Assembly (NCBI GenBank): GCA_964387845.1 | Contig: CAYLXA010000002.1 | Coordinates: 128,001 to 192,000 of the forward strand | Reading direction: 5' to 3' | Length of the DNA: 64,000 nucleotides | Source: an uncultured bacterium | Lineage (GTDB): Bacteria > Omnitrophota > Omnitrophia > Omnitrophales > Abzuiibacteriaceae | Shown here: positions 1,707 through 52,144 of the stretch, in pieces | Position numbering within the stretch: the stretch's first letter is position 1 | How the letters are laid out: each line of letters begins with the position of its first letter | Notes under the pieces: model-generated | Databases searched by the model: none | Told to the model about the DNA's origin: nothing | Seen by the model: the letters and a program-made list of their open reading frames with translations, nothing else | Translations under genes and position numbers: made by a program

Positions 1707-2860
1707 ACAAAACAAAAATACTACATCTAACGACCCATTTGAATATTGGCGGTATCACAACCTATATTTATTTATTGGGCAAGGGACTTGACTCGGCTCA
1801 TTATGAGACCTCTGTTTTTTCAAGCGGCGGTGAAATGGAAAAACAATTCAACAAGTCCGGAATTCGTACTTACGCGTCACCATTCAGAACCAAGAGCGAA
1901 TTAAGCCCGAAGCTTTATTTCGCCATTCCGGAAGTAATTCGCATTATTAAAAACGAAAATATTAATTTATTGCATGCACACACCCGCGTTACGCAAGTCA
2001 TGGCGTGGTGGATCCAGAAAATCACCGGGATTCCTTATGTCTCAACCTGTCATGGTTTCTATAAAAGACGGCTAGGCAGGCGTTTGCTGCCGGCTTGGGG
2101 CAATAAAGTAATCGCGATTAGCCCGCCGGTGGCTGACTCTCTGGTAAACGAATTTAAGGTTCCTGCTGAAAAAGTTAAAACCATTTTGAATGCTATCGAT
2201 ATTGATACTTTAGAGGATTTGGTTCGACAAAAAAATCAGTCAAGCATTACCATCGAATATGATTTGCAATCCACAAAACCTATTTTGGGAATAGTGGCTC
2301 GGATTGTAAAAGATAAGGGGCATGAATATTTGCTTAAGGCCTTCGCGCAGCTGCTGCCTCAATATCCGGACTTGAAATTATTGGTGGTTGGAACCGGCAG
2401 TTATTTGTCCGACGTTAAAAAGCTGGCTGATCAGTTAAGCCTCACTAAAAATTTAACATTTGTGGGCAATCTTAATGATGTTACGAAAGCGCTGGCAGTG
2501 ATTGATATTTTTATATTACCCGCTGTCTGGCGCGAGGGTTTTGGCTTGTCGATTGTCGAGGCGATGGCATTAAAGAAACCAGTTATTGCAACCAATATCT
2601 GGGCTCTCAATTCATTGGTCCAAAACAAAGTGAACGGACTTTTGATTCAACCCAAAAACGTTACAGAGCTGGCTAGTGCGATTACGGAGCTGATTGAAAA
2701 TCAAGACCTGAGAAGAGCGGTAGGTGAAAAAGCTTACAAAACCGTGCAGGAACAATTCTCAATCAAGCGAATGACACGGGATTTCGATCGCCTATATCAA
2801 CAAATACTGCAATCTGACAGCAGATTAGCCGGCAAGAAATCTTCAGCGATGGCGCGTTGA
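1703..2860 (+). CDS. Glycosyltransferase family 4 (GT1-fold) protein
   Basis: N-terminal GT4 region (HLNIGGITTY) and C-terminal GT1 domain with the EGFGLSIVEAMA motif. Overlaps the fmt stop (ATGA). Confidence 0.8.
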   Translation: MNKTKILHLTTHLNIGGITTYIYLLGKGLDSAHYETSVFSSGGEMEKQFNKSGIRTYASPFRTKSELSPKLYFAIPEVIRIIKNENINLLHAHTRVTQVMAWWIQKITGIPYVSTCHGFYKRRLGRRLLPAWGNKVIAISPPVADSLVNEFKVPAEKVKTILNAIDIDTLEDLVRQKNQSSITIEYDLQSTKPILGIVARIVKDKGHEYLLKAFAQLLPQYPDLKLLVVGTGSYLSDVKKLADQLSLTKNLTFVGNLNDVTKALAVIDIFILPAVWREGFGLSIVEAMALKKPVIATNIWALNSLVQNKVNGLLIQPKNVTELASAITELIENQDLRRAVGEKAYKTVQEQFSIKRMTRDFDRLYQQILQSDSRLAGKKSSAMAR

Positions 2861-2884
2861 CAGTCTTTTCAGTATCTGTATAAT
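2857..2884 (+). promoter_or_regulatory. Near-consensus sigma-70 promoter upstream of gap (TTGACA-N16-TATAAT)
   Basis: TTGACA at 2857-2862 and TATAAT at 2879-2884, read directly. An AGGAGG Shine-Dalgarno site sits at 2930-2935 before ATG 2944. Confidence 0.6.
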
Positions 2885-2931: not shown

Positions 2932-4047
<1,116 letters not shown>

Positions 4048-33337: not shown

Positions 33338-33366
33338 TTCTTGACATTTTTTAATTTAGTCATATA
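33338..33366 (+). promoter_or_regulatory. Near-consensus sigma-70 promoter (TTGACA-N16-TATAAT) for the PC4-like gene
   Basis: cttgacattttttaatttagtcatataattc, read directly. Confidence 0.55.
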
Positions 33367-33449
33367 ATTCTTGTGTTTTTAGTAATACCTTCCACGCACA
33401 CCTCACGCGCAGTGCAAAAATCAAAACCAACCATCAAGAGGAGTGTGTC

Positions 33450-33692
33450 ATGGACAAACAAGTGGTTTATCAGTTTGACCGCAATCAAAATGAAAAAGTG
33501 GTAGTCTCCATAGGTGCTTATAAAGAGAAGACTTACGTCGATTTTAGGGTCTTCTTTGAGGACCCAGGCTCGGGTGATTTAAAGCCCACCAAAAAAGGGA
33601 TTACGATTGCAGAAAACCTGCTTCCGCATTTGAAAAGAGCGATTGGGGCCTGTGAGAAAACAAAGGTCCCGGCTGCGTCATTTAAGAGCTGA
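33450..33692 (+). CDS. PC4-like (transcriptional coactivator p15 / YdbC family) ssDNA-binding protein
   Basis: KTYVDFRVFFEDPGSGDLKPTKKGITIAENL matches the PC4-domain hallmark (YVDIREYY...PTKKGISL), 80 aa. GGAG-containing SD upstream. Confidence 0.6.
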   Translation: MDKQVVYQFDRNQNEKVVVSIGAYKEKTYVDFRVFFEDPGSGDLKPTKKGITIAENLLPHLKRAIGACEKTKVPAASFKS

Positions 33693-33723
33693 TTTTTAGT
33701 TAAAACGCACCCTATCTTCAACT

Positions 33724-33751
33724 TTACAAACATGTGGTAAGTGTGTATAAT
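33724..33751 (+). promoter_or_regulatory. Sigma-70-like promoter of recA (TTTACAA...TATAAT)
   Basis: TTACAA-N16-TATAAT read directly. The -10 element overlaps the ORF-track GTG start at 33741, which argues against that start. Confidence 0.5.
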
Positions 33752-33800
33752 GCCGACATTTAGAACAAATCACGAGACCATCCAGAACGGGGAAGACGAC

Positions 33801-34904
33801 ATGAAAAAGAAACCATCATCCAAGAAAGAACATTCAGAAGAACCTCAAGGGAAAGCTGCTCAAGAAAAGAAGAAAGCATTAGAGTTAACACTTTTACATA
33901 TCGAAAAGCAGTTTGGAAAAGGTTCCATCATGAAACTGGGTGATGAACACCAGCGCCGCATGCAGGTTGATGTCATTCCAACCGGCGCCTTTACACTGGA
34001 TCTTGCAACCGGCATCGGCGGCGTTCCGCGCGGCCGCGTCATTGAGATCTTCGGGCCGGAGTCCAGCGGAAAAACCACGCTGACGCTAAGCATTGTCGCC
34101 CGCGCTCAAAAGATGGGCGGAACTGCCGCGTTTATTGATGCAGAGCACGCATTAGACCCTGCTTATGCAACCAAGCTTGGCGTGAACCTGAATGACCTTC
34201 TGATTTCTCAGCCGGATTCCGGCGAGCAGGCACTTCAGATCGTTGAAATGCTGATTCGCTCAAACGCGATTGATGTTTTGGTGGTCGATTCTGTCGCGGC
34301 GCTCGTACCGAAGTCTGAAATTGAAGGCGAAATGGGCGCTTCCTCGATGGGCGTTCAAGCGCGCCTGATGTCGCAGGCATTGCGGAAACTCACGGCAATT
34401 ATCAGCAAATCAAAAACATCGCTCATCTTCATCAATCAAATCCGCGATAAAATCGGTGTCATGTTCGGCAATCCCGAAACAACACCGGGCGGAAAAGCGC
34501 TGAAGTTCTTCTCATCGATGCGGCTCGATATCCGCCGGATTGGTTCAATTAAGAAAGGTGAAGAAGTGGTCGGTAACCGCGTGCGCGTTAAAGTCGTCAA
34601 AAATAAGTGCGCGGCACCTTTCAAACTCGCCGAATTCGACATCATGTTCGATGAAGGCATCTCGCGCTCAGCTTCGGTGATTGATATCGCGATCGAAAAC
34701 GAGATTCTCGAGAAATCGGGCAGCTGGATTGCCTACAATAACGAAAAAATCGGACAAGGGCGCGATGCTGTCAGGCTTTTCCTTCGCGAAAACCCGAATC
34801 TCCTGGAAGAAATTGAAGGCAAAGTCAGGGAAAAACTCACAGCGGTTGCCGCAGAGCATCCGCAGAAGCCTGGCTCCCAGGATGAGGAGAAAGACAGCGA
34901 ATAA
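33801..34904 (+). CDS. recA: Recombinase RecA
   Basis: [23 protein letters not shown], Walker A (GPESSGKTT), the L1/L2 loop region and IFINQIR. ATG 33801 (MKKKP) sits downstream of the promoter with a GGGGAAG RBS. The ORF-track start 33741 is a GTG inside the -10 box. Confidence 0.9.
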
Positions 34905-34938
34905 TCTCGCCTGAACTTCTAAATCTCTTGAGGGTGAA

Positions 34939-34969
34939 ACGCGGCGGATTGATTCCGCCGTGTTTTTTT
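34939..34969 (+). terminator. Strong rho-independent terminator between recA and recX
   Basis: acgcggcgga-ttga-tccgccgtgt 10-bp GC-rich stem then a TTTTTTT run. Confidence 0.75.
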
Positions 34970-47441: not shown

Positions 47442-48632
47442 ATGGCAAACCGTCATTTCTTGACCAAAGCGATTGAAAAAATCGGAAAAGTCGACAAGCA
47501 AAATTTAGAACAGCTTGTCATCAGTCTCCGCCATGAGGCGCATTTTCTGCATGAATTGCTGAGCCGTATCCAGGAAGGCGTCATGGTGGTCAGCTCAAAA
47601 CTTGAAGTCAGATTTTTAAACCGAAAAGCCCAGCTCATTGTCGGCAGCTCCAGCCTTCTCAGGCATCACGAAACCGTGCGGGACATTGTCGAGGACGAAG
47701 GGCTCCGAGCGTTGATTGAAAAAACGGTTGAATCCGGCCAAGAAATTTATGACACCCCGGTCGATTTGTACATTCCGCGGCACGCCCAGCTCAATGTGTC
47801 CATTTTAAAATTTGAGCCAAGCCCCGGTGAAGCGCAAACCGAATGGAAAAAATTCTATATCGTCTTATTAACCCGGCAATCGGCTGCCGAAGAGCGGGAG
47901 CTTGAAAGAGCGCGCCACGAAAAAATGAATTCAGTCATCAGTCTGGCGGACGGCATTGCGCATGAAATCGGAAACCCGCTCAATTCAATCAATATTCATT
48001 TGCAACTGCTTTTAAGCGACATCGAGAAACTTCCGAAAAAAGAGCAGGCCGCGATTCGAAAAACCGCGCAAATCGTAGCGGATGAAACCAAGCGGCTGGA
48101 TTCAATTATCCGTAATTTCTTAAAAGCAAGCCGCCGAAAACCGATTGAATTCCGATCAACTCAGATCAACGACATTCTGAATCACGTTCTCGAGCTTTTA
48201 AAACCCGAAATCGTCAACAATCGGATTCAAGTAAAAACTTCTTTTGATTCTGCGCTGCCCAAATTTTTAATTGATGAAGACCGTTTGAGCCAAGTGTATG
48301 TGAATTTGATGCGCAATGCCATTCAGGCCATGCCGAAGGGCGGAAGGCTTGCAGTCTCGACGCAGATGCATAAGCGGCTTTGTATCACACAAATCGCAGA
48401 CACCGGAGTCGGCATTTCGAAAAAAGACATCCCAAAAATTTTTGACGCGTATTACACCACCAAAGAAGAGGGGAGCGGTTTGGGCTTGATGATTGCTTAC
48501 CAAATCATCGGGGAGCACGGTGGAAAAATCGAAATTGAAAGCAAATTGGGCAAAGGAACGGTCGTCACGGTCCTTCTACCGATCCGGACTGAAAAGCTGC
48601 AGCTCACCGGCCCAAAAAGGAGCAGGGAATAA
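47442..48632 (+). CDS. Cytoplasmic PAS-type sensor histidine kinase (NtrB-like)
   Basis: No TM helix. H-box ADGIAHEIGNPLNSINIHLQLL, N-box LMRNAIQA, and G1/G2 boxes (DTGVGI, GSGLGL). Confidence 0.8.
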   Translation: MANRHFLTKAIEKIGKVDKQNLEQLVISLRHEAHFLHELLSRIQEGVMVVSSKLEVRFLNRKAQLIVGSSSLLRHHETVRDIVEDEGLRALIEKTVESGQEIYDTPVDLYIPRHAQLNVSILKFEPSPGEAQTEWKKFYIVLLTRQSAAEERELERARHEKMNSVISLADGIAHEIGNPLNSINIHLQLLLSDIEKLPKKEQAAIRKTAQIVADETKRLDSIIRNFLKASRRKPIEFRSTQINDILNHVLELLKPEIVNNRIQVKTSFDSALPKFLIDEDRLSQVYVNLMRNAIQAMPKGGRLAVSTQMHKRLCITQIADTGVGISKKDIPKIFDAYYTTKEEGSGLGLMIAYQIIGEHGGKIEIESKLGKGTVVTVLLPIRTEKLQLTGPKRSRE

Positions 48633-50021
48633 ATGGAACATTTAAACAGCGGTATTTTGATTGTCGACGATGAAAAGAATACGCGTGAAGGGCTTCAGCG
48701 ATTTTTGGAGCAAAAGGGCTATGAAGCCCATGTTGCAGAAAATGGCGAAGAAGCGCTCAAGCTGGCCAAAGAACTCAATCCGGACATCACGCTGCTGGAT
48801 CTCCGCATGCCCGGAATGGACGGCATGCACTTGCTTCACCGGCTCAAAGCCGGACATCCAAAAATGGTTGTACTCATGCTGACTGCGTACGGGACCGTTG
48901 AAACGGCGGTTCAAGCCATGAAGGCCGGTGCGTATTACTACCTAACAAAACCGGTCAATTTGGATGAGCTGGAACTCATTCTCCGAAAAGCGATTCGCGA
49001 GCAATCGCTCGAGCATGAAAATCAGAATTTACGCCAAGATTTAATCCGCGAAAAGTTTGAAGAAGGAAAAATCGTAGGCGAATCGCCTGTGATTAAAAAA
49101 TTAATCGACATGGCCAAACAAATCGCAGGTTCCGCCGCTACGGTTTTGATTCAAGGCGAAAGCGGAACGGGAAAAGAACTGTTTGCGCATATGATCCATG
49201 ATCACAGCCCCCGAAAAGGCAAGCCATTCATCACGGTTCATTGCGCGGCGCTCACCGAAACTTTGCTTGCCAGCGAACTCTTCGGACACGAACGCGGTGC
49301 ATTTACCGGTGCAACGGAGCGAAAAATCGGCCGGTTTGAACGCGCTGACAGCGGGACGCTTTTCCTGGATGAGATCGGCGAAATTTCGGAAGAAACGCAG
49401 GTGAAGCTTCTCAGGTTTCTTCAAGAAGGCGAATTTGAACGCGTCGGAAGCTCTAAAACCATGAAAGTTGATGTGCGCCTAATTTGCGCAACCAATAAAG
49501 ATTTGAAAAGCGAAGTCGCCGCCGGGCGATTTCGTGAAGATTTATTTTACCGGATCAATGTTATTCCGCTGACTATTCCACCGCTTCGAGAACGCGGCCA
49601 GGATATTCCGCTTTTAGCGAATTATTACGTCCGTTATTTCAGCCGGCAAAATCAGAAAAAAATCTCAGGCATAGCACCGGAAGCATTGCAAAAACTGCAA
49701 AGCTACTCCTGGCCCGGCAACATCCGTGAACTCCGCAATATCATTGAGCGGGCAGTGGTGTTGGCCAAATCGGATAAAATCGAACTTCAAAATATTCCCG
49801 ATGACTTGGAGGGTTCTTCTGTGATTAAACGGCCTTCGGAATCGCTGCAAAAAGCGGAAACCGATAACGGTGTCCGGCTCACAGCGCTTGAAAAATTGGC
49901 CATTGAACGCGCACTGAAAAATGTTAACGGCAACAAATCTTTAGCCGCCAAAGAACTTGGCATTTCACGCCGAACGCTTTATCGCAAGCTTGAAGAATAC
50001 AACATTGGTGATTCAAAATGA
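48633..50021 (+). CDS. Sigma-54-dependent response regulator (NtrC family: REC + AAA + Fis HTH)
   Basis: REC domain with the phospho-acceptor D in [11 protein letters not shown]; Walker [15 protein letters not shown] motif and the ESELFGHE region; C-terminal HTH ([12 protein letters not shown]). Confidence 0.9.
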
Positions 50022-50040: not shown

Positions 50041-50215
50041 CCCGACAAAATCTGCCAAAAATATTCTCCAATCAAAATCTGACTATACATAAGTCATTTA
50101 TTAACAATAACTTACATAAATTAATATTTACAATCGATTTGGCATGTAATTTGTTCTAATAGAGATAAGATTTGGGCTGTCAAAATAAGCAAAATTGAAA
50201 AGGAGCGGTACTGAA

Positions 50216-52144
50216 ATGGCAAAAATTTTAGGCATTGACCTCGGAACAACAAACTCATGCATGGCCGTGATGGAAGGCGGGGAAGCGAAAGTAATCGCCA
50301 ACAAAGAAGGGAACCGGACAACACCTTCTGTTGTGGGATTTTCAAAATCAGGCGAACGCTACGTCGGACAAGCCGCCAAGCGCCAGGCAATCACCAATCC
50401 TGAAAATACAGTGTTCAGCGCAAAACGGTTCATCGGACGCCGGACCAGTGAAGTCGATCGCGAAGTAAAATTGGTTCCTTACAAAATCGCATCAGGCAAG
50501 CACAGCGAAGCAGTGTTCAATATTGCAGGTCGCGAATATACGCCGCCCGAAATTTCGGCGATGGTTTTGCAAAAACTCAAAAGCGACGCGGAAGCTTACT
50601 TGGGTGAAAAAATAGAAAAAGCAGTCATCACAGTTCCCGCTTACTTTAACGACTCACAGCGCCAAGCCACCAAAGATGCGGGCCAAATTGCTGGGCTCGA
50701 GGTAGTTCGCATTATCAATGAACCTACCGCAGCTGCGCTCGCATACGGACTTGATAAAAAGAAAGACGAGCGCATCGCGGTTTACGATTTGGGCGGCGGC
50801 ACGTTCGACATTTCTATTTTGGAGCTGGGCGACGGTGTTTTTGAAGTCAAAGCCACGAACGGCGACACACATCTGGGTGGCGACGATTTCGATCAGCGCG
50901 TCATCGAATGGCTCATTGCCGAATTCAAGAAGCAGGAAGGAATTGATTTGTCAAAAGACCGCATGGCGCTTCAACGGTTAAAAGAAGCCGCCGAGAAGGC
51001 CAAATGCGAACTTTCCACATCACAGACATCCGAAATCAATCTGCCGTTCATTACGGCTGATGCCACAGGCCCCAAACATTTGGTTGTGTCGCTTTCGCGT
51101 GCCAAATTAGAGCAGCTGGTTCAGGACTTAATTGAACGCACTGCAGGCCCTTGCGAAAAATGTCTGCGAGATTCCGGAATTTCAGTGGATAAAATCGACG
51201 AAGTCATTTTGGTCGGCGGACAAACCCGGATGCCGGCTGTGATCGACATGGTGAAGAAAATTTTCAAAAAAGATCCGCATCAGGGGGTCAATCCCGATGA
51301 AGTCGTGGCGGTCGGTGCCGCGATTCAAGGCGGCGTTTTGGCCGGCGAAGTGCGTGACGTGCTGCTTTTAGACGTAACACCGCTTTCTCTTGGCATTGAA
51401 ACGTTGGGCGGAGTGATGACAAAGTTAATCGAACGAAATACCACAATTCCGACTAAAAAATCCGAAATTTTCTCGACGGCAGCCGACAATCAAACCGCTG
51501 TCACAGTGAAAGTGCTGCAAGGGGAGCGGGAAATGGCAAACGATAACCGCGTGCTGGGACTTTTCAATTTAGAAGGCATTCCGCCGGCACCGCGCGGCGT
51601 TCCTCAGGTTGAGGTAACGTTTGATATCGACGCCAACGGTATTGTTCATGTTTCGGCAAAAGATCTCGGAACCGGGAAAGAACAAAAAATCCGGATCGAA
51701 TCATCTTCCGGTCTCAGCAAAGACGAAGTCGAAAAACTCGTCAAAGAAGCGCAAACACATGCCGCGGACGATAAAAAGAAGCACGAACTGATTCAGTCGC
51801 GGAACAATCTCGACAATTTGATCTACGCCACCGAAAAGAGCTTGAAAGATTATGGCGACAAGGTAAGCGCAGATGAAAAGTCAAAGATTGAAGAGGCGCT
51901 CAAAGAAGCAAAAGAGACATTGAGCAAAGACGACGCGGAACTCCTCAAAAAAGCCGCTGAAAAACTGGCCGCCGCCTCGCACGGAATCGCGCAAAAGATG
52001 TATGAGGATGCCGCGAAAAAGCAGGGCGCTAAGGCCGGTGATCAACCTCAGGGAGAAGCGGGTTCTGAGAGCGGTAAAAAAGGTGATGTGGTCGACGCAG
52101 ATTTTGAAGTCGTCGATGAGGATGAAAAGAAACGCAAATCCTGA
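50216..52144 (+). CDS. dnaK: Molecular chaperone DnaK (Hsp70)
   Basis: [22 protein letters not shown] and the Hsp70 signatures. AAGGAG SD 8 nt upstream; the ORF-track 50195 is an extension. Confidence 0.95.

Follow-up and report, generated by a model that had tools for sequence, protein, structure and literature searches.

Why does a gene for an 80-residue protein of the PC4 family stand directly in front of recA in a bacterium of the phylum Omnitrophota? The locus lies within a 64,000-nucleotide stretch of contig CAYLXA010000002.1 (assembly GCA_964387845.1, positions 128,001 to 192,000 of the forward strand), which as a whole is termed the window below. The original prediction, made from the letters of this DNA, described a monocistronic unit with its own consensus promoter, and suggested that its product was a recombination or repair accessory factor that binds single-stranded DNA (ssDNA). 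The answer reached here is that the PC4-like gene shares with recA a conserved operon context in Omnitrophota; this context is new, and the PC4 family itself is known. To the full statement, that the protein is a PC4-family ssDNA binder encoded promoter-proximally in a recA unit and acting with RecA, we give about an even chance. Structures have been solved for bacterial members of the PC4 family, and their binding to ssDNA has been demonstrated, but to our knowledge they have no assigned cellular role; no paper was found that connects PC4-like genes with recA or with this phylum.

The adjacency on which the original prediction built its case is conserved in related genomes and recurs across the phylum. 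Within the window the PC4-like gene is followed by recA, recX and alaS, and is preceded by genes for SMC, a CDP-alcohol phosphatidyltransferase, Der and PlsY. The position of recA was mapped by tblastn with the window proteins in a metagenome scan of 80 loci (individual loci are cited by L numbers). At PC4 identities of at least 46%, recA was found directly 3' in every locus with enough downstream DNA except L052; recA was also directly 3' of the PC4-like gene in scan loci at 41-42% identity, and the linkage persisted at 29-46% identity in L041, L048, L063, L112, L113 and L115. Near relatives of the PC4-recA locus came from groundwater and sediment metagenomes. We also examined the locus from the recA side, using seven Omnitrophota-type RecA proteins on long contigs that were picked without reference to PC4; a PC4-domain gene lay immediately 5' of recA in 6 of the 7 (L112, L113, L115, L116, L117 and L118), and there was none in L114. 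The PC4-like gene thus stands directly 5' of recA-recX-alaS in about 20 distinct Omnitrophota lineages, over PC4 identities from 85% down to 29%. A GTDB scan with the clade alignment had first suggested that recA adjacency was not conserved (19 loci at no more than 43% identity, 0 with recA within 5 kb); this was overturned by the metagenome scan and the recA-side look-ups. The GTDB peptide-pattern scan evidently missed the Omnitrophota orthologues and is unusable as a prevalence estimate for the pair.

The genes upstream of the pair are less constant. A der gene is present in few lineages, plsY is gone from L041-L044, L046 and L113, and pgsA is gone from L115; the upstream neighbour of the PC4-like gene alternates between plsY and pgsA. 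The PC4-recA junction survives these losses and is kept in all but one lineage. In a neighbour-joining tree all 22 recA-linked proteins cluster together, apart from more than 60 non-linked relatives, which belong mostly to other phyla (Thermodesulfobacteriota, Acidobacteriota, Spirochaetota and others) and have no recA nearby. When the neighbours at 82 non-recA PC4-like loci were clustered, the only patterns were synteny confined to single lineages (purE/purD, pabA/B) and, in some cases, a mobile-element setting (ArdC), with no recurrent repair gene among them. One such copy occurs in an Omnitrophota metagenome-assembled genome (L012, 5001-6136), where the PC4-like paralogue and the beginning of an ArdC-type gene (ArdcN with a zincin metallopeptidase) have 4 nt in common, and a 1097-residue open reading frame (ORF) lies upstream; this paralogue seems to be carried by a mobile element. 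Links to phage were sparse: tblastn against 50,697 phage records gave no match, an IMG/VR scan gave one weak locus, and PADLOC gave nothing.

As to the nature of the protein, the PC4-like ORF is a genuine Candidatus Omnitrophota gene, and it is under purifying selection, nonsynonymous divergence (pN) being 0.09-0.12 versus a saturated synonymous divergence (pS) of 0.71-0.81 against three orthologues. Its product contains the string YVDFRVFFEDPGSGDLKPTKKGITIAENL that had been singled out as the PC4 hallmark, and a hidden Markov model search bore out the domain claim, PF02229 matching with E=2e-12 and 46.8 bits (cut-off 25) over profile positions 3-51 of 52. Divergent recA-linked orthologues likewise exceed the cut-off (36.5, 31.7 and 49.1 bits for L115, L116 and L117). 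For the window protein no Pfam family other than PF02229 was found at E≤1, and the NCBIfam search gave a chance-level match only and no specific model; in neither search was there a profile match to the canonical single-stranded DNA-binding protein (SSB) with its oligonucleotide-binding (OB) fold, or to the RecO, RecR, DprA or RecX families. A clade profile, built from the window protein and its closest homologues, was run against all PDB sequences at E≤1. It matched human PC4 at 6e-9 to 3e-8 (the best matches, the human PC4/Sub1/MoSub1 group, span 6e-9 to 6e-7) and BPSL1147 at 3e-8, and it also retrieved MoSub1 from a fungus and, as a weak match, the homologue of phage T5 (E=0.018); YdbC (2ltd/2ltt) and SP_0782 (5zkl) remained unretrieved across the PDB even at this threshold. 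The label "YdbC family" given to the protein earlier was therefore imprecise, and on profile evidence we assign the protein to the canonical PC4 subfamily, not to the DUF2128/YdbC branch.

The predicted structure agrees with this assignment. An AlphaFold2 (AF2) monomer model (predicted local distance difference test score, pLDDT, 74) has the beta-beta-beta-beta-alpha topology of a PC4-type fold, and Foldseek with this model returned the T5 homologue 4bg7 first and BPSL1147 second. The residues of human PC4 that contact ssDNA, namely F77, K78, K80, R86, W89, R100 and K101, have Y24, K25, K27, R33, F36, K48 and K49 as their counterparts in the window protein; alignment of the 22 recA-linked proteins with human PC4 shows an aromatic or basic residue at these positions in 20-22 of them. 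Retention of the aromatic and basic residues of the human ssDNA channel makes a binder of single-stranded or melted DNA the most likely reading, and we predict with high confidence that the window protein binds ssDNA as a member of the PC4 family. It is most likely a small homodimer that would bind single-stranded or melted DNA independently of sequence. A single cysteine in the C-terminal helix (Cys68, 33651-33653, within the motif ACEK) is kept as (A/L/V)CEK in most recA-linked proteins and has no counterpart in human PC4; its position could lie at a dimer interface or be sensitive to redox state. The family as sampled by an exhaustive search of 1.84 billion cluster representatives is broad: 1,926 clusters were recovered at E≤1e-3, mostly single-domain proteins of about 80 residues, together with longer proteins in which the profile matched more than once, with as many as four PC4 repeats. 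Those with four (P0013, P0016-P0019 and others, 340-507 residues) have Lys/Glu/Asp-rich linkers and are presumably eukaryotic.

Are the two genes transcribed apart, or together? The PC4-like ORF ends 30 nt ahead of the recA promoter, as had been stated (stop at 33692, -35 hexamer from 33723). The description as a monocistronic unit did not stand: there is no terminator between the PC4-like ORF and recA in the window, and none of 20 loci has a terminator-like hairpin in the interval from the PC4 stop codon to the recA -10. In five lineages (L033, L005, L039, L048 and L063) the recA -35 lies inside the PC4 ORF by 10-31 nt, which leaves no room for termination there. A strong terminator follows recA in 8 of the 13 loci in which that region could be tested, the window included. 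Taken together, the lack of an intervening terminator, the overlap of the -35 and the terminator after recA argue that the stretch from the PC4-like gene to recA is one unit that includes an internal recA promoter; the two genes also lie on one strand with little space between them, in an arrangement that is conserved. The unit is predicted to run P(PC4)-leader-PC4-P(recA)-recA-terminator, with recA transcripts arising by read-through as well as at the internal promoter. The stem of the terminator, (A)CGGCGGA...TCCGCCG(T), is near-identical in the window, L042, L041, L113 and L112, unusually conserved for a terminator, and the PC4 proteins of these lineages are only 44-49% identical.

The RecA encoded by the second gene has its best named homologues in Candidatus Omnitrophica/Omnitrophota (71-78% identity), except for one labelled Verrucomicrobiae, which places the window in an Omnitrophota (OP3) genome. 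Its residues 1-32 (33801-33895) belong to a variable Lys/Glu-rich extension of roughly 15-30 residues seen in Omnitrophota RecA ahead of the point where sequence conservation sets in; the tblastn RecA alignments all begin at residue 33-34, and the extension is present as well in L114, which has no PC4 gene. Coordinates of the features are collected in the table.

Table. Positions of the PC4-like gene, recA and associated sequence elements, numbered from the first nucleotide of the window.
Feature	Position	Strand	Description
PC4-family (PF02229) gene	33450..33692	+	ATG start, 80 aa; predicted small binding protein for ssDNA or melted DNA
recA	33801..34904	+	367 aa; PF00154 E=3e-136, RecA_C 7.7e-22; Lys/Glu-rich N-terminal extension
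PC4-like gene promoter	33341..33368	+	TTGACA 33341-33346, N16, TATAAT 33363-33368; 12/12 consensus
5' leader	33375..33449	+	about 75 nt, inferred from the -10 position; CCUCC-like box and Shine-Dalgarno (SD) sequence
Internal recA promoter	33722..33751	+	CTTTACA-N17-TATAAT; TTTACA 33723-33728, TATAAT 33746-33751; 11/12 match
Inverted repeat around recA -10	33738..33762	+	TAAGT-N15-A(C/T)TTA; candidate operator
Intrinsic terminator closing the PC4-like/recA unit	34936..34966	+	13-bp stem, 7 G-C pairs, then T-run
Second perfect TTGACA-N16-TATAAT	2857-2884		precedes the GAPDH (gap) gene 2944-4047; yardstick for PC4 promoter strength
dnaK region, listed together	50090-50114, 50142-50157, 47442-50021, 50216-52144		

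The promoter of the PC4-like gene proved to be as originally described, a full match to TTGACA-N16-TATAAT. Exact consensus sequences with a 16-18 nt spacer occur at two sites in the 64 kb, where 0 are expected (none in 100 shuffles), and since the only other perfect site drives GAPDH, the PC4 promoter falls in the strongest class of the window. Upstream of the orthologues a (C)TTGAC or TTGAT -35 and an AT-rich -10 recur. We read the window site as a very strong, constitutive-type sigma-70 promoter, as judged by its match to consensus. In the minimum free energy (MFE) fold of the leader, a CCUCC-like box (33391-33404) pairs with the SD/start region (33438-33454; GAGGAG at 33438-33443). Box and SD covary in several relatives (CCCCCC/GGGGG, TCCTCCC/GGGAGGA, TCCCTCC/GGAGGGA), and over 16 loci the duplex exceeded dinucleotide shuffles with a Fisher p=6e-4, versus 0.60 for control genes. 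The accessibility of the initiation region of the PC4-like genes did not differ from that of control genes (p=0.22), the window leader was no more stable than its shuffles (MFE z-score +0.42), and MAFFT with RNAalifold on the leaders gave no consensus structure; Rfam found nothing in the leader at gathering threshold, and a permissive search gave a chance-level match to CRISPR-DR65 (E=0.81, 21 bits versus a gathering score of 43). A pairing that sequesters the SD in the PC4 leader is thus a weak candidate.

The recA promoter is unique in sequence within the window and is well conserved in the phylum. CTTTACA is present in 20 of the 20 aligned Omnitrophota loci, followed by a spacer of 17 nt, save for a single locus with 16 nt; 14 of the 20 have TATAAT as the -10, and the others TATACT or TAAAAT. 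Bracketing this -10 is an inverted repeat whose arms, mutual reverse complements, are TAAGT placed three bases 5' of the -10 and A(C/T)TTA(G) placed six bases 3'. Few columns of the recA promoter alignment are as well conserved as those of the arms, and the repeat occurs in about 16 of the 20 loci, those with it at the same recA promoter position including L033, L034, L037, L042, L044, L046 and L113. It is absent from L047, which has the PC4 gene; L115, L116 and L117 carry other inverted repeats instead, and L114, the recA locus without a PC4 gene, has no inverted repeat at its recA promoter. TAAGT-N15-ACTTA looks like a candidate operator for a dimeric regulator. It is presumably unlike LexA boxes, and no scan with known LexA motifs was made. 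With LexA of E. coli or B. subtilis, or SSB of E. coli, as the query, tblastn gave no match in the 676 kb searched, which is too little to be informative.

The original prediction had proposed looking for LexA-box-like palindromes near both promoters; a palindrome was found at the recA promoter and none at the PC4 promoter. A weight matrix of the recA repeat, run upstream of the PC4-like gene, gave shuffle p>0.05 in 19 of 20 loci, and the sole p=0.025 (L112) is the chance expectation among 20 tests. No significant repeat site lies 5' of the PC4-like gene, so the two promoters have no operator in common, and a LexA-type operator shared by the two genes was rejected. Pattern searches for the repeat in the window and the loci gave chance-level counts, except for the recA promoters and one dnaK site. 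The latter is the only perfect second TAAGT-N15-ACTTA in the window; it lies upstream of dnaK, about 30-50 nt before a sigma-54-like TGGCAT-N5-TTGT element, and a histidine kinase and an NtrC-type sigma-54 activator (Pfam) are encoded immediately 5' of this region. dnaK may be under sigma-54/enhancer control, or may have a regulator in common with recA.

What, then, would a PC4-like protein do in a recA unit? A very strong promoter would drive its gene, and transcription would continue unterminated into recA. The PC4-recA pair has been retained across the phylum even where its neighbours were lost or exchanged, and for this reason the protein and RecA most likely have a substrate in common. 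There it would coat or protect ssDNA, or hold the displaced strand of a D-loop or bubble, and so could serve as an accessory SSB or as a modulator of RecA filament formation in recombinational repair. DNA-repair roles are known for eukaryotic PC4/Sub1. We infer from context a functional or physical interaction with RecA, and the recombination or repair accessory role originally predicted is a reasonable one, its basis being gene context.

Several observations weigh against an action with RecA, and they suit instead an abundant, general ssDNA-binding or nucleoid-associated protein with no RecA-specific role, which might protect melted DNA or limit oxidative damage, and whose gene rides as a passenger in a conserved chromosomal block. 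The whole block smc-pgsA-(der)-(plsY)-PC4-recA-recX-alaS is syntenic across the phylum, the unrelated genes smc, pgsA, plsY and alaS being conserved in it as well, and this weakens a pure guilt-by-association argument for PC4 and RecA. A promoter of the GAPDH class suggests constitutive high expression independent of recA; the PC4 promoter is missing the inverted repeat of the recA type; and the relatives that group apart from the recA-linked proteins sit in unrelated contexts. We nevertheless consider a passenger, the main rival, rather unlikely. The same block has lost der, plsY and pgsA in several lineages and has kept the PC4-recA junction in all but one, and the junction is tight: with no terminator, and with the -35 overlapping the end of the ORF in five lineages, the PC4-like gene and recA would share transcripts.

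The repeat at the recA promoter allows for a role in regulation. A PC4-like dimer could occupy the repeat or the melted -10 of recA, and be titrated off by the ssDNA that arises upon damage, independently of LexA. In eukaryotes PC4 acts as a repressor through its binding to promoter DNA in the melted state; the layout resembles that of a regulator adjoining its target, with a phylum-conserved repeat that brackets the recA -10; the sole recA locus lacking the PC4 gene (L114) also lacks the repeat, the divergent PC4 clades (L115-L117) carry different inverted repeats, and there is a weak match to PHROG 4053, "transcriptional regulator" (E=6e-4). This is improbable all the same: the protein consists of the PC4 domain alone and has no module known to recognise specific sequences in double-stranded DNA, a GAPDH-class promoter is atypical for a repressor, L047 has the PC4 gene but no repeat, the L114 correlation is n=1, and the palindrome could just as well belong to some unrelated dimeric repressor. 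Quite improbable is its extension, in which the PC4-like protein would be the ssDNA sensor of a LexA-independent damage response, blocking read-through from its own promoter as well, with recA released by ssDNA titration; if true, it would carry the repression by eukaryotic PC4 on melted DNA into a bacterial SOS-like switch. AcrIIA22 is a PC4-like protein with nicking activity, and a nicking role of this sort, or the binding of single-stranded RNA or another nucleic-acid role (translation, mRNA metabolism), in each case unrelated to recombination, is the least probable of the readings set out here.

This locus provides the first context clue that a PC4-like protein may act with RecA, and gives the family a first testable cellular hypothesis, namely that of a PC4-type accessory ssDNA binder for RecA. 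The result, based on context in an uncultivated phylum, should be of use to specialists in recombination and ssDNA-binding proteins. It also exposes a conserved promoter/operator architecture of recA in Omnitrophota, for which no damage response has been described.

Compared with known PC4-type proteins, the window protein is like the C-terminal domain of human PC4 (SUB1) and Sub1/MoSub1 (1pcf, 2c62, 4usg, 4bhm) in Pfam family, topology and contact residues; it is, however, a bare domain of 80 residues without the eukaryotic Ser/Lys-rich N-terminal regulatory region, and its gene is bacterial and predicted to be co-transcribed with recA, with no coactivator context. It shares with the phage T5 protein (4bg7), its top Foldseek match, the character of a PC4-family ssDNA binder, whereas the T5 homologue is a phage replicative SSB of about 15% identity with no RecA operon. 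An accessory-binder role would parallel both the repair roles of eukaryotic PC4/Sub1 and the part of the T5 homologue in recombination-dependent replication (implicated by the title of PDB entry 4bg7). BPSL1147 of Burkholderia pseudomallei (5a4n/5a4o) is a bacterial single-domain PC4-family protein of similar size, the gene contexts of which are variable, next to phage integrases in some Burkholderia, with no recA linkage (PMC3575825). The survey of bacterial PC4, YdbC and Pur-alpha proteins reported variable neighbourhoods and monocistronic genes, and the PC4-recA linkage runs counter to its generalisation that bacterial PC4 genes are without conserved context (PMC3575825). YdbC of Lactococcus lactis and SP_0782 of Streptococcus pneumoniae likewise bind ssDNA as small bacterial dimers and belong to the same fold superfamily; they are of the DUF2128 type and mainly from Firmicutes, unlike the clade of the window protein. 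As a further precedent, SP_0782 is induced 8-fold in pneumococcal competence (PMC7145681), a RecA-dependent process. SsbB/DprA, RecO/RecR and RecX offer a functional analogy, as proteins that act on RecA substrates and are often co-regulated with recA or adjacent to it. These RecA partners, among which recX also lies 3' of recA in the window, share no sequence or fold relationship with the PC4-like protein.
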